The translations under genes were made by a program, and so were the position numbers. 64,000 bases of DNA from Candidatus Bathyarchaeota archaeon (GTDB lineage Archaea; Thermoproteota; Bathyarchaeia; Bathyarchaeales; Bathycorpusculaceae): contig CAVZJV010000014.1 of NCBI GenBank assembly GCA_963775685.1, positions 2,176,001 through 2,240,000 of the forward strand, read 5' to 3'. The stretch's first letter is position 1; each line of letters starts with the position of its first letter. Below the pieces are notes generated by a model. It worked only from the letters and a program-made list of their open reading frames with translations, was not told where the DNA came from and made no database searches. This document shows, one piece after another, positions 794 through 61,092 of this stretch.

Positions 794-816
794 TGGAACC
801 GCTGGGACTCGAACCT
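794..816 (-). repeat. tRNA 3'-end-like fragment (possible att remnant)
   Basis: Reverse complement AGGTTCGAGTCCCAGCGGTTCCA = T-loop, T-stem and acceptor 3' strand, ~95 bp after the terminase. Confidence 0.45.
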
Positions 817-1171
817 AAGGTCGTCACATGCGCCCCAGACATGTATCTTAATCTATGCTATCGGTTGTTTGTAATGTCCATACTAATGAGGGTTTTAATG
901 CGATAAAAAAAGCAGAGGATTTTGTTCGTTGAGGATGAAGGATTAAGACCATTTGAGCGACAGAGCAGTTTTTAGAAGCACAAGACAGGCCACCACTGGT
1001 ACTGTGGATTCCTTCAAAAATATATCCCGGCGCAAAGTTTGTGTTCTTTGAAACCGGCGGATAGATGTTTGGTGATACCTAGATGATTTACAAAGTGAAA
1101 CGGGTCAGCTTTCTGCGAAAGAACAAAATAATTCCATAAAAGGAAAAGTTAGGGGGTTATCCGCCTCTTTT

Positions 1172-10187: not shown

Positions 10188-10289
10188 TACACTCAGCCTT
10201 TAAAAAAACGTGTCGCAAACTTTAATAAACCTTCCCGCAACGCACCCAAAATGCTGAGAATTACAACACAAATACACAAAAACCGAGAA

Positions 10290-10363
10290 AGCCTCGAGCG
10301 GGCTTTGCTCCCGCGGCCTGCTGCTTACGAGGCAGCCGCTCCACTGGGCTGAGCTATCGAGGC
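10290..10363 (-). tRNA. tRNA-Thr(CGT) with non-canonical D/T loops
   Basis: GCCTCGA acceptor, GCTC/GAGC D-stem, GCTGC-CTCGTAA-GCAGC anticodon arm, GCGGG-AGCAAAG-CCCGC T-arm, U73. Confidence 0.9.
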
Positions 10364-10483
10364 ATACAGCTGTCTTTAGCGTATTGAGTATATTTGGTAT
10401 TTTTAAATGTTGGTTTGGGTGTTGGCTGTGATTTTTGGGTGTTTATTTATTTGGTTGATTATCTGATTGTTTGTTGTTTATTG

Positions 10484-11485
10484 GTGGACGGTTTGGCTGG
10501 CGAAGGTTTGGGCGAGCACGAAATAATTAGGCTTATCCAGCAGCGTTTAACAGTTATGCCCGATATGCCTGTGCCGTTTGGAGACGACGTTTCAGCTGTA
10601 TCGCTAGGTAACAACGAAGTAGCAGTTCTAAAAACAGACATGCTTGTGGCAAAAACCGACGTACCATCAGGCATGAGCTTATTTGCAGCAGCCCGAAAAG
10701 CAGTCGTAATGAATATCAGCGACTTCGCTGCCAAAGGGGTCTTACCGTCAGCGGTTTTAGTGGCGCTTGGTTTACCCAGAGGCCTAAGTACTGAAGATGT
10801 CATAGAGATTGCTGAAGGGTTGAATGTTGGAGCACGTGAATATGGCGCTTACGTGGTTGGTGGCGACACAGGTGAAGCATCTGACTTGATAATTGGCATT
10901 TCACTTTTTGGAACCGTTAAACAAAGCTTTTTGATGTTGCGTAGTGGCGCTCGAGCCGGCGATATTGTTGCGGTTACTGGGTTGTTTGGGAAATCTGCAG
11001 CTGGACTACGTTTGCTGCTTGGAAAATGCAGGGCTTCGAAAACAATGAGTGATGTTTTAGTTGATGCAGTGTTTAATCCTAAGGCGCGGTTGCGTGAGGG
11101 TTTGGCTCTCCGCAGCTACGGCTATATTTCAAGCAGTATAGATTCGAGTGATGGTTTAGCTTGGAGTTTGCATGAGTTGGCGCGGATGAGCAATGTTGGC
11201 TTCGCGCTTGATAAAGTTCCAATTGCATCTGAGGTAGAAGAATTTGCGTTGTGGAATGGTTTGGATGCGTTGGAGCTGGCTTTGTACGGAGGCGAAGAAT
11301 ACGAATTGGTGTTGACGGTTAAACCTGAAAATTGGTCAGAGGCAAAAGCGGTAGTTGAAACCGTGGGCGGATGTCTCATTCCTATTGGAAGGGCAACCTT
11401 TGAAAAAGAAATCATTATGGAGATAAACGGCGAAAAACGACTTATTGAGGCTCGTGGATGGGAGCATTTCAAAAGCCAGATTTAG
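10484..11485 (+). CDS. thiL: Thiamine-monophosphate kinase
   Basis: GEHEII, GDDVSA, KTDMLV, NISDFAAKG, GGDT, DSSDGL, GGEEYEL and GWEHF; start reassigned downstream of the ORF-track start. Confidence 0.92.
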   Translation: MDGLAGEGLGEHEIIRLIQQRLTVMPDMPVPFGDDVSAVSLGNNEVAVLKTDMLVAKTDVPSGMSLFAAARKAVVMNISDFAAKGVLPSAVLVALGLPRGLSTEDVIEIAEGLNVGAREYGAYVVGGDTGEASDLIIGISLFGTVKQSFLMLRSGARAGDIVAVTGLFGKSAAGLRLLLGKCRASKTMSDVLVDAVFNPKARLREGLALRSYGYISSSIDSSDGLAWSLHELARMSNVGFALDKVPIASEVEEFALWNGLDALELALYGGEEYELVLTVKPENWSEAKAVVETVGGCLIPIGRATFEKEIIMEINGEKRLIEARGWEHFKSQI

Positions 11486-12047
11486 CTTGCTTGTCTAAGG
11501 TATAATTGATTATTGTTATGCATGACGCTGCAAGGTATGGAGTTTTTCCAAGGCTGATTTTTTCTCCAAACCGCAAGGCGAACAGTTCTGTTTTTTTGGG
11601 CAAACCAACATGGTCCCCCAGGATAAAGACGCTATTTTCTGCAAGCTGGACTTGGCTTATGTCTTTTCCGCCTTCCTCAAGTACATAGACCTTGTGCGTT
11701 TGGGCTTTGGTTTTAAGGAGTGTTTCAAAACTTGTTTTGTCCTTGGATATACCAGGATGAGTTTTCCCAGATATGATTTTTTTTAGGATTGCCTGCCAAG
11801 TATCCCTGTCGGTTCGTACATCGTAAAGATTGTCTCCATTGATTTGAATATGCAAAGGTGGGTTAGGTGGACCATTTAGGATGGCGTGAAAGGTTACGTC
11901 TCTGCGGAGTCCATGAGAAAGAAAAAGGCTGCTGACGACGCATTCGTGAACGATATCAAGTCTTCCAGCATCGTGCAGATTATGGAAGTTTGAATCGGTT
12001 TGACCTATACGTGAGAAAAGGATGAATTCACATGGCAAGACAGTCAC
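11469..12047 (-). CDS. trmY: tRNA (pseudouridine54-N1)-methyltransferase, SPOUT family
   Basis: AGRLDI...SSLFLSHGLRRDV, GPPNPP, FILGDHVG, ISLG..PYLAASCI. Confidence 0.85.
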   Translation of the reverse strand: MTVLPCEFILFSRIGQTDSNFHNLHDAGRLDIVHECVVSSLFLSHGLRRDVTFHAILNGPPNPPLHIQINGDNLYDVRTDRDTWQAILKKIISGKTHPGISKDKTSFETLLKTKAQTHKVYVLEEGGKDISQVQLAENSVFILGDHVGLPKKTELFALRFGEKISLGKTPYLAASCITIINYTLDKQAKSGF

Positions 12048-12220: not shown

Positions 12221-12298
12221 GGGGCCATCGGCTAGCTTGGTCTAGGCTTGTAGACTTGGGCTCTATAGACTCCGGTTCAAATCCGGGTGGCCCCACCA
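12221..12298 (+). tRNA. tRNA-Pro(TGG), CCA encoded
   Basis: GGGGCCA/TGGCCCC acceptor, GTAGA-CTTGGGC-TCTAT anticodon arm, canonical GGTTCAAATCC. Confidence 0.95.
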
Positions 12299-40171: not shown

Positions 40172-40285
40172 TGGCGCCGGGAGGGGGATTTGAACCCCCG
40201 TGGCCCCGAGAGGCCACAAGCTGATTGGTGTCCTTTCAAAAGGACATCTCCAGGCTTGCTCCCTGCCTGGCTAGGAGACCCCGGC
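40172..40285 (-). tRNA. tRNA-Ser(GGA) with 25-nt intron at 37/38 (40223-40247), CCA encoded
   Basis: GCCGGGG acceptor, long variable arm TGGCC/GGCCA, GGTTCAAATCC, BHB-like motif around the intron. Confidence 0.93.
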
Positions 40286-53733: not shown

Positions 53734-54765
53734 ATGCCCAGAACAACCCCGCCGTGGGAAACCCAACGCCAATTGCTAACAAAAAAAGAAGACTACACCG
53801 ACCCAAAATACGGTTGCAAACCCTCTGAGCGACCAGCAAAAGAATACATCAAATATGGTACCATAAACCTCGATAAGCCTGCCGGTCCGACAAGCCACGA
53901 AGTTGCGGCATGGGTCAAAAAAATCATGCATTTAGAAACGATTGGGCACGGAGGAACCCTCGACCCCAAAGTCACAGGTGTTTTACCAATCACACTTGAG
54001 GACGCGACCAAAATGGTTCAGGCGCTGCTTCACAGCGGCAAAGAATATGTCTGCGTCATGAAACTGCACGGCGACGTAGGCGAGGACCAGGTTAAGAGTG
54101 TTTTGGCTGAATTTGAGGATGAAATCTATCAACGTCCACCTTTACGTTCATCAGTCAAACGGCAAATCCGTACTAGGCGCATATACTATAACAATTACAT
54201 GGAGATGGATGGACGAAATGTTCTCTTCAAAGTCGGCTGCGAAGGCGGAACATACATCCGTAAACTCTGCTTTGACATCGGCGAAATCCTAGGCGTTGGC
54301 GCTCACATGCAGGAGCTCCGTCGAACCCGCGCAGGGCCATTCCTTGAAACCAGCGCCAAAAAAGTTACGTTGCATGATGTTGCTTACTGGTTTGGTGAAT
54401 ACGAAGCGAAAAAAGAGCAGTCATTCTTGTGCAAGTTCATTGAGCCCATGGAAGTTGCTCTAATGCAGGTCCCCAAAATCATCGTTCGCGATTCAGCCGT
54501 TGATGCTCTTTGCCACGGCGCCAACTTGACCGCGCCAGGTGTGTTGCAGGTTGATACGGGTATCATGAAGGATTCAGTGGTTGCGATTTTCACGTTAAAG
54601 GGCGAAGCAGTTGCGTTAGCTAAAGCGCTTGTTTCAACCCAAGAGATAATGGAGCTAAACCATGGCGCAGTTGCTGCTCTTGCACGTGTGCTTATGCCAC
54701 GGGGCACTTACCCAAAAGTTTGGAAAAGTAGGGGCGCCAATGAGCAAAGACCCAAAGAACGTTGA
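53734..54765 (+). CDS. cbf5: H/ACA pseudouridine synthase Cbf5 (TruB family)
   Basis: LDKPAGPTSHEV, GHGGTLDP.VTGVL, GTYIR.L and PUA domain. Confidence 0.95.
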   Translation: MPRTTPPWETQRQLLTKKEDYTDPKYGCKPSERPAKEYIKYGTINLDKPAGPTSHEVAAWVKKIMHLETIGHGGTLDPKVTGVLPITLEDATKMVQALLHSGKEYVCVMKLHGDVGEDQVKSVLAEFEDEIYQRPPLRSSVKRQIRTRRIYYNNYMEMDGRNVLFKVGCEGGTYIRKLCFDIGEILGVGAHMQELRRTRAGPFLETSAKKVTLHDVAYWFGEYEAKKEQSFLCKFIEPMEVALMQVPKIIVRDSAVDALCHGANLTAPGVLQVDTGIMKDSVVAIFTLKGEAVALAKALVSTQEIMELNHGAVAALARVLMPRGTYPKVWKSRGANEQRPKER

Positions 54766-55354
54766 GCACTATTTTGCCTGTGCACCCAGATCTCAGGAAC
54801 GCTTCGGACTTGTTCGAACTATCCTTTGCGGTAAATCCTTCGAGTTTTTGACTGCCTCGAGTGTTTTTTCGAAGCGAAAGATTGATTCTGGCACCAGGCT
54901 GCTCATCGAAGCCATGGTGCTGCCTCAAACAGGCTGCGTTCTTGACATCGGCTGCGGATACGGTGCTGTCGGAATATCCATCGCTAAACTCAACCCCAAA
55001 CTGCACGTAGTCATGACGGATGTGAACGCCCGAGCAGTGCGCTTAGCCAAGAAAAACGTGGAGTTAAACAGAGTAACAAACACCGAGGTACGTTACGGCT
55101 TCTTCTATGAGCCTGTGGAGAATTTGAAGTTCAATTGCATTCTGTCGAATCCTCCTGTAAGTGCCGGCATGGAAACAGTGAAAGCAATAGTGACGGGTGC
55201 TCCTATAGAAATGTCGACCGACGCGAGTTTTCAAATGGTTATCCGCTCCAAAATTGGCGCAAAATTATTGCCTTCTCTTTTTACTGAAACTTTTGGCAAT
55301 TGTACAGTTCTTGCTCGTGAGAGTGGTTTTAGGGTACTCGTAGGCAAGATTTAG
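54740..55354 (+). CDS. Class I SAM methyltransferase, RsmC-like
   Basis: HYF, VFS...ID.GT.LL, LDIGCGYG, DVN.RA and SNPP. Confidence 0.85.
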   Translation: MSKDPKNVEHYFACAPRSQERFGLVRTILCGKSFEFLTASSVFSKRKIDSGTRLLIEAMVLPQTGCVLDIGCGYGAVGISIAKLNPKLHVVMTDVNARAVRLAKKNVELNRVTNTEVRYGFFYEPVENLKFNCILSNPPVSAGMETVKAIVTGAPIEMSTDASFQMVIRSKIGAKLLPSLFTETFGNCTVLARESGFRVLVGKI

Positions 55355-55934: not shown

Positions 55935-56011
55935 TGGAGCCTCGAGCGGGCCTTGCTCCCGCGGCCTGCTGCTTACAAGGCAGCCGCTCTACTGGGCTGA
56001 GCTATCGAGGC
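55935..56011 (-). tRNA. tRNA-Thr(TGT) with non-canonical D/T loops, CCA encoded
   Basis: Same body as the CGT copy (3 differences); T-loop AGCAAGG, D-loop AGCCCAGTA. Confidence 0.9.
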
Positions 56012-58055: not shown

Positions 58056-58059
58056 CATT

Positions 58060-61092
<3,033 letters not shown>

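Follow-up and report, generated by a model that had tools for sequence, protein, structure and literature searches.

Threonine tRNA genes with A18, A54 and G55 in place of G18, U54 and U55 in a soil Bathyarchaeia archaeon and its relatives

The canonical tRNA elbow has G18, U54, U55 and a pyrimidine at position 60 (Y60). According to the available part of one source (PMC7912444), U55 is conserved, stacks on residue 54 and makes contact with G18, residue 60 is a pyrimidine, and U54 is universal save for the eukaryotic initiator tRNA, in which an A54-A58 purine pair is formed. [quoted passage not shown] Yeast SUP4oc did not tolerate any single change in G18-U55 or U54-A58, and U20G alone was reported to rescue G18A (PMC4117946, in the part available). 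A natural C55, i.e., a departure from U55 in a working tRNA, is described for tRNA-Gly of Lactiplantibacillus plantarum in the accessible portion of PMC10464925.

T-loops outside tRNA follow the YGNRA pattern, and between their positions 4 and 5 an adenosine almost always intercalates. In the cobalamin riboswitch env8, the position-2 G receives two hydrogen bonds at its sugar edge from the intercalated adenosine (10.1101/2022.12.26.521914, available in part). According to the same partial text, T-loops of the FMN and cobalamin riboswitches have G at position 2, a purine at 4 and A at 5, together with a partner adenosine (10.1101/2022.12.26.521914).

The threonine tRNA genes with the anticodons CGT and TGT, hereinafter Thr(YGT), of a soil Bathyarchaeia archaeon have the cloverleaf, G19-C56, A57, A58, G53-C61, the loop sizes and the Thr identity elements in common with canonical tRNAs, whereas A18, A54, G55 and G60 stand in place of G18, U54, U55 and Y60. 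Both genes thus lack G18 with U55 as well as U54-A58 with a pyrimidine at position 60 (A54, A58 and G60 are found instead); the G19-C56 outer pair and a purine at position 57 are present in all variants examined. A54 faces A58 as in the eukaryotic initiator tRNA-Met (PMC7912444, in the part available). The initiators keep U55 and G18, whereas Thr(YGT) are archaeal elongators with G55 and A18. A purine at position 60 is common to both, the eukaryotic initiator having A60. The C55 tRNAs keep a pyrimidine and G18, whereas in Thr(YGT) both partners are purines. As to the generic T-loop, Thr(YGT) has G at position 2 (G55), a purine at position 4 (A57) and A at position 5 (A58), with A18 as the counterpart of the partner adenosine. 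The riboswitch loops have a pyrimidine at position 1 and a non-tRNA partner, whereas Thr(YGT) has A54 at position 1, outside YGNRA, and its partner would come from the D-loop, with the geometry proposed by analogy.

Natural tRNAs with A18/G55 were not found described in the literature searched (subscription-only papers lay outside it), and no catalogue giving the motif as common in the TACK archaea, a possibility that the sequence-only reading had named as contrary to its interpretation, was found there. Among the genes fetched, the A18/G55 swap is found in two genera of one Bathyarchaeia family and so is no general TACK trait.

The window, i.e., the whole analysed stretch of 64,000 nucleotides (C14:2176001-2240000 of genome G000), belongs to a 3.06-Mb assembly that is 96.9% complete (Table 1). 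For Thr(CGT), an intact cloverleaf with the Thr identity elements had been proposed from the letters alone, together with an elbow carrying A18 and A54-G55 and keeping G19 and C56. This elbow was confirmed by direct reading, ARAGORN, Rfam and the arm parse. The cloverleaf held as well: Rfam RF00005 is matched in full (model 1-71) with 53.9 bits and E 8.6e-9 at a gathering score of 29, the parse gives 7/7 acceptor pairs and 5/5 T-stem pairs, and the acceptor read on the minus strand has G1-C72, C2-G71 and the discriminator U73. The archaeal Thr identity set comprises an NGU anticodon, G1-C72, C2-G71 and U73. As expected of elongator tRNA-Thr, the two genes have the anticodons CGU/UGU, the acceptor GCCUCGA/UCGAGGC and U73. 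Position 18 was numbered by homology, since in the relatives with AGCCCGGUA the sole difference is a G-to-A change at the leading G of the GG.

The Thr(TGT) gene matches Rfam RF00005 with 57.7 bits at 55938-56011 (gathering score 29), likewise over model 1-71. Its body is like that of Thr(CGT) of the same genome, the two differing at three positions (21, 34 and 59), and its elbow is the same; only the CGT gene had been listed earlier, so that two genes are concerned. A TTTAWA-type element is located 25-45 nt upstream of many other tRNA genes in this genome, and both Thr(YGT) genes have TATA-like elements there. Folding prediction gives the Thr(CGT) transcript a minimum-energy structure other than the cloverleaf (-35.1 kcal/mol), with AGC of the T-loop paired to GCU of the D-stem; the predicted minimum-energy folds of the Thr(TGT) transcript and of one G18/U55 relative are cloverleaves.

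Table 1. Features of the window and the basis of their assignment (window coordinates).
Feature	Position	Strand	Details	Basis
tRNA-Pro(ggg), doubtful	794-868	-	aberrant D-arm	ARAGORN only
T5 run downstream of tRNA-Thr(CGT)	10278..10282	-	8-12 nt after the discriminator, in TTCTCGGTTTTTGTG	likely archaeal terminator signal (putative role)
tRNA-Thr(CGT) gene	10290..10363	-	74 nt to discriminator U73, CCA not encoded	ARAGORN, Rfam RF00005, arm parse
T-loop of tRNA-Thr(CGT)	10303..10309	-	AGCAAAG: A54 (10309), G55 (10308), C56 (10307), A57, A58 (10305), A59, G60 (10303)	direct read, Rfam alignment, parse
D-loop of tRNA-Thr(CGT)	10342..10350	-	AGCCCAGUG: A14, G15, C16, C17, C17a, A18 (10345), G19 (10344), U20, G21	direct read, parse, homology to AGCCCGGUA in relatives
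A/T-rich TATA-like elements of tRNA-Thr(CGT)	10389..10407	-	TTTAAAAATA (-44..-35) and AAATATA (-32..-26), counted from the mature 5' end	putative promoter role
TrmY-family gene	11469-12047	-	pseudouridine 54 N1-methyltransferase family	PF04013, 133 bits; NF002560, 147.9 bits, below the 183 cutoff
tRNA-Pro(TGG)	12221-12298			
tRNA-Ser(GGA)	~40172-40285		intron-bearing	
Cbf5	53734-54765	+	pseudouridine 55 synthase	TIGR00425, 447 bits
MTS-type methyltransferase	54662-55354		after Cbf5	
tRNA-Thr(TGT) gene	55935..56011	-	CCA encoded; D-loop AGCCCAGUA (A18 at 55993); T-loop AGCAAGG (A54 at 55957, G55 at 55956)	ARAGORN, Rfam, parse
Archaeal LSU rRNA	58059-61091			

The Pro(TGG) and Ser(GGA) tRNAs of the window are canonical, as had been claimed. 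The Pro(ggg) call is doubtful, likely a false call or a decayed copy, since it is given by ARAGORN only, has 5/7 acceptor pairs and lacks an Rfam match; a proper Pro(GGG) gene is located at C14:41474.

A18, A54 or G55 were found in 2 of the 46 ARAGORN tRNA genes of the genome, namely the two Thr(YGT) genes. The remaining Thr gene (GGT, C14:1522866) has G18 and the T-loop UCCAAAU, and the initiator-type tRNA-Met has the normal T-loop UUCAAAU. Rfam gave 45 tRNA matches in the genome, the single Rfam-only one being an intron-bearing CAU tRNA. BLAST of Thr(CGT) against its own genome returned no matches beyond the two Thr(YGT) genes, and a regular-expression scan of the genome for a Thr anticodon stem-loop followed by a T-arm found just the three Thr genes and one non-tRNA match. 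A canonical Thr(CGT/TGT) copy elsewhere in the genome, which would have spoken against the sequence-only reading, was thus not found by ARAGORN, Rfam, BLAST or the pattern scan. In a crude long-ORF set, ACA makes up 32.9% and ACG 13.1% (together 46%) of 29,077 Thr codons. Sole-copy status, this codon use and the single ThrRS point to ordinary elongator tRNAs that are charged and used in translation. The Thr(YGT) genes are real and conserved, and almost certainly functional.

Several other tRNA genes of the genome show peculiarities of their own. C55 (T-loop UCC) with normal G18-G19 is found in 5 of the 46 genes: Asp GTC (C5:105992), Val GAC (C14:385174), Thr GGT (C14:1522866), Val TAC (C14:1624706) and Glu TTC (C14:1919181). 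The T-loop UCCGAAU was found in a Thr(CGT) gene from another family of the order (L028). A second copy of the 3' part of tRNA-Val(TAC) lies about 800 bp downstream (C14:1623883-1624783; ARAGORN, long introns) with small ORFs between the two, an arrangement resembling the integration of a small element into the tRNA gene. For Ser GCT, Ala CGC and Arg TCG, the contig pairs C5/C11, C10/C14 and C5/C8 carry identical tRNA genes whose upstream flanks are also identical or nearly so; these repeats on small contigs suggest redundant contigs in the assembly.

Among relatives, matches to Thr(YGT) were obtained in 81 of the 121 genomes sampled across the family (G000 counted). The gene was present in 21 of the 24 other genomes of the window's genus (g1); G009, G011 and G018 gave no match to the Thr tRNA. 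Among the matches listed, identical genes were found in records of Ca. Bathycorpusculum grumuli and Ca. Bathycorpusculum soli, a genus of Bathycorpusculaceae, Bathyarchaeales. For the comparison, 135 Thr(YGT) genes of relatives in this family and order were fetched and parsed; the parse left out L069, which ends at the contig end, and L061 and L096 were registered by regular expression. G18/U55 was present in 97 genes, G18/C55 in one, A18/G55 in 33 (genera g1 and g45 only) and A18/U55 in four, all of them CGT genes from four genera (L035, L036, L044 and L055); G18/G55 was present in none of the 135. G55 is thus always accompanied by A18 (33/33) and is absent from the genes with G18 (0/98). The compensatory A18-G55 relationship proposed earlier is supported as to the coupling and fails as to its strictness, since four CGT genes combine A18 with U55.

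A54 and G60 are spread more widely than A18 among the Thr(YGT) genes of relatives. A few genera, and other families of the order, have the T-loop UUCAAAU; in UUCAAAG, G60 is the sole change; AUCRARG, the commonest form, adds A54; and AGCRARG adds G55, invariably with A18. GUCAAAG occurs three times, and UUCAAAC, AUCAAUG and AUCGACG are further forms in the family. From this distribution, the A18/G55 swap appears to sit on an older A54/G60 background. G19, C56, A57/R57 and A58 are invariant across the relatives' Thr(YGT). In 67 distinct sequences of relatives, the stems covary at 4-69, 7-66, 13-22, 27-43, 29-41, 49-65 and 50-64, which argues for tRNA-type selection on the Thr(YGT) genes.

The TGT genes of G003, G024, G008 and G017 are identical to A18/G55 TGT genes but for positions 18 and 55. 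Both elbow forms of Thr(YGT) are found together in single genomes (G005, G008 and G017). In G005 the CGT genes are of two kinds, the first with A18/G55, the second with the acceptor GCCCCGA, G9 and G18/U55. With the two forms present side by side in a genome, a single set of partner proteins would accept both elbows; these three genomes, like G000, probably have one ThrRS.

The changes were mapped on a FastTree nucleotide tree of aEF-2 from 27 genomes, a single-gene tree from MAGs rooted with three other genera. G023, whose candidate is 51% identical and probably a paralogue or foreign, and G004, which has the paralogue only, were left out. aEF-2 was matched in 29/29 genomes searched; a second, weaker match, usually of about 500-690 bits and apparently a paralogue, was present in nearly all of them, G004 excepted. 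In the assembly studied here, where the matches lie at C14:911443-913640 and C14:1211723-1213270, the aEF-2 gene has an in-frame TGA, possibly due to a frameshift or to faulty assembly. On the tree, g45 is basal to g1, and the minimum number of 18/55 changes is at least 4 for TGT (25 genomes scored) and at least 8 for CGT (26 scored). For CGT, 8 changes compare with a shuffle mean of 10.2, and 212 of 2000 shuffles were as low. The count of independent changes may be inflated, since the CGT genes of G005 are of two kinds; sorting of paralogues, gene conversion or between-species recombination could explain much of the patchiness.

A T-arm with the T-loop AGCAAAG or AGCGAAG was also searched for outside the family. 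Most of the matches listed were chance ones in GC-rich bacteria and lacked a tRNA call, so the search gives no distribution. Among the matches listed, A18-G19 together with the pattern T-arm was found in three tRNA-Asp genes on bacterial contigs (L154 and L195, from Verrucomicrobiaceae and Prosthecobacter, and L223). The tRNA-Pro L226 has the pattern T-arm and an ambiguous D-loop register. On viral contigs, A18-G19 was found in five tRNAs, L297 (Pro), L298 (Gly), L299 (Pro), L326 (Pro) and L330 (Ala). Four phage tRNA-Asp (L314, L320, L323 and L329) have the T-loop AGCAAAG and a D-loop ending in ACGAA, with C before G19; C18-G55 may be a third 18/55 combination. No GG was present in the D-loops of the bacterial and viral pattern tRNAs read among the matches listed. 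These phage and accessory-array tRNAs (Asp, Pro, Gly and Ala) resemble Thr(YGT) in the T-arm pattern and A18-G19. They belong to extra or mobile sets, whereas in the free-living archaeon studied here two sense codons have no chromosomal decoders other than Thr(YGT), and intermediates survive in its relatives. On the tRNA genes compared, the A18/G55 elbow is not threonine-specific in nature.

None of the 36 viral loci with the T-arm pattern was a Bathycorpusculaceae-type tRNA-Thr, and no integrase or other Pfam match was found in the small ORFs adjoining the Thr tRNA. A viral or mobile origin of the Thr tRNA was rejected on these grounds.

Based on the directly observed gene integrity, sole-copy status, conservation, 18/55 coupling and enzyme presence, Thr(CGT) and Thr(TGT) are quite probably ordinary working elongator tRNAs that read ACG and ACA and possess an alternative D-loop/T-loop corner arisen stepwise; their three-dimensional contacts, the order of steps and expression are proposed here, the contacts by analogy. 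A18 would slide between A57 and A58 and form hydrogen bonds to G55, replacing the contact of G18 with pseudouridine 55. A54-A58 would take the place of the U54-A58 reverse-Hoogsteen pair, as in the eukaryotic initiator tRNA. The G19-C56 outer pair, the face touched by RNase P and the ribosome, is unchanged; it is the flat-face pair of the elbow, and RNase P uses it too. A18/G55 would then be a standard T-loop contact imported into tRNA, which would explain why G55 is found only where A18 is present.

The elbow appears to have arisen in Bathycorpusculaceae by the successive changes of U60 to G, U54 to A, G18 to A and U55 to G, an order (G60, A54, A18, G55) suggested by the nesting of the T-loop forms and not by a rooted family tree. 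Among the genes fetched, the A18/U55 stage persists in CGU isoacceptors alone, and these are probably partly redundant. Against the alternative elbow count the A at loop position 1, the four genes that combine A18 with U55, the intolerance of SUP4oc to single changes, the predicted non-cloverleaf fold of the Thr(CGT) transcript and the C, not A, before G19 in the four phage tRNA-Asp.

It might also be supposed that the elbow is merely loosened, so that the Thr(YGT) loops drift and the 18/55 coupling comes from shared ancestry and paralogue sorting with no direct contact. The large plasticity of the Thr(YGT) T-loop in the family (8 forms including AUCRARG and AGCRARG), the C55 of five other tRNAs in the genome and the small difference between the CGT changes and the shuffles are in line with such drift, and the two CGT kinds of G005 make lineage sorting possible. 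However, G18/G55 would hardly be missing from 98 genes when A18/G55 occurs 33 times, A18 with G55 is found in unrelated bacterial and phage tRNAs as well, the contact of a position-2 G with an intercalated A has a published structural precedent, and G19, C56, A57/R57 and A58 do not vary. This explanation is therefore considered unlikely.

The loss of modification enzymes was ruled out as a cause, as Pus10 (483 bits), Cbf5 and a TrmY-family gene are all encoded in the genome. Neither pseudouridine 54 or 55 nor m1-pseudouridine 54 can be formed in Thr(CGT) and Thr(TGT), since the target uridines are absent. The Cbf5 gene is located 1.2 kb upstream of tRNA-Thr(TGT), which has G55, a proximity that is probably coincidental. 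The TrmY-family gene is located between tRNA-Thr(CGT) and tRNA-Pro(TGG) and adjoins a Thr tRNA with no U54 to modify; the Thr(CGT)-Pro(TGG) neighbourhood recurs in the loci of relatives.

The removal of substrates of Pus10, Cbf5 and TrmY could point to adaptive escape, in which tRNAs devoid of U54/U55 are protected from a T-loop-directed enzyme (a toxin or viral nuclease) or from these modification enzymes themselves. The same elbow in phage tRNAs, where evasion of host defences is plausible, is consistent with this. Nevertheless, escape is distinctly improbable, because merely 2 of about 45 tRNAs are altered, tRNAs for the same amino acid occur in both forms within genomes, and the viral loci contain no tRNA-Thr of the Bathycorpusculaceae type. 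Pfam revealed no toxin gene beside either Thr tRNA, and no T-loop-cutting nuclease was found here; to our knowledge, none is known for archaea.

The sequence-only reading had also considered the elbow as an amino-acid-specific determinant of identity or editing. Such a threonine-specific signal for identity, anti-identity or editing, recognised by ThrRS or by the editing domain of that enzyme, would agree with the restriction of the change to Thr(CGT) and Thr(TGT) in G000. It is very hard to reconcile with the other data. One archaeal-type ThrRS gene is above the cutoff (NF003068, 761 bits) and no second ThrRS was found in the genome, the other four matches being weak and due to different class II synthetases; this speaks against a dedicated synthetase. 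Thr(GGT) has G18 and U54, both Thr(YGT) forms coexist within single genomes (G005, G008 and G017), and Asp, Pro, Gly and Ala tRNAs have the same elbow elsewhere. In bacterial ThrRS-tRNA structures, ThrRS touches the acceptor stem and the anticodon, not the elbow. Pseudogenes or assembly artefacts can practically be dismissed, for although assembly errors exist here (the in-frame TGA in aEF-2 and the tRNA genes duplicated on small contigs), identical or near-identical genes are present elsewhere in the genus, in 21/24 further genomes, and in a second genus as well, the stems are intact and covarying, and the genome has no other ACA/ACG decoder.

The alternative corner favoured above may, more tentatively, represent a second natural elbow architecture, in which G18-pseudouridine 55 is exchanged for the A-G contact of other T-loops. 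The whole path would then be kept in living Bathycorpusculaceae, with the risky A18/U55 stage tolerated only in the partly redundant CGU isoacceptor and the design passed to the essential UGU one by an anticodon switch or gene conversion.

Few bases in biology are as strongly conserved as G18, U54 and U55, which are treated as intolerant of change in reviews and deep mutational scans (PMC7912444 and PMC4117946, in the parts available); here an essential pair of Thr tRNAs is without all three. The finding is of interest mainly because of the natural single-step and double-step variants in relatives, and the close relatives that differ only at positions 18 and 55 represent a natural double-mutant cycle. 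Natural sequences could thereby serve to address three long-standing questions: the role of pseudouridine 55 and modified U54, how far RNase P, the ribosome, the CCA enzyme and EF-1A rely on the G19-C56 face alone in recognising the elbow, and how an RNA crosses the fitness valley between two tertiary designs. The elbow is also relevant for tRNA annotation and the design of orthogonal tRNAs. If the reading as a second architecture is true, pseudouridine 54/55 and m1-pseudouridine 54 would be dispensable for an essential archaeal tRNA with a rebuilt elbow.
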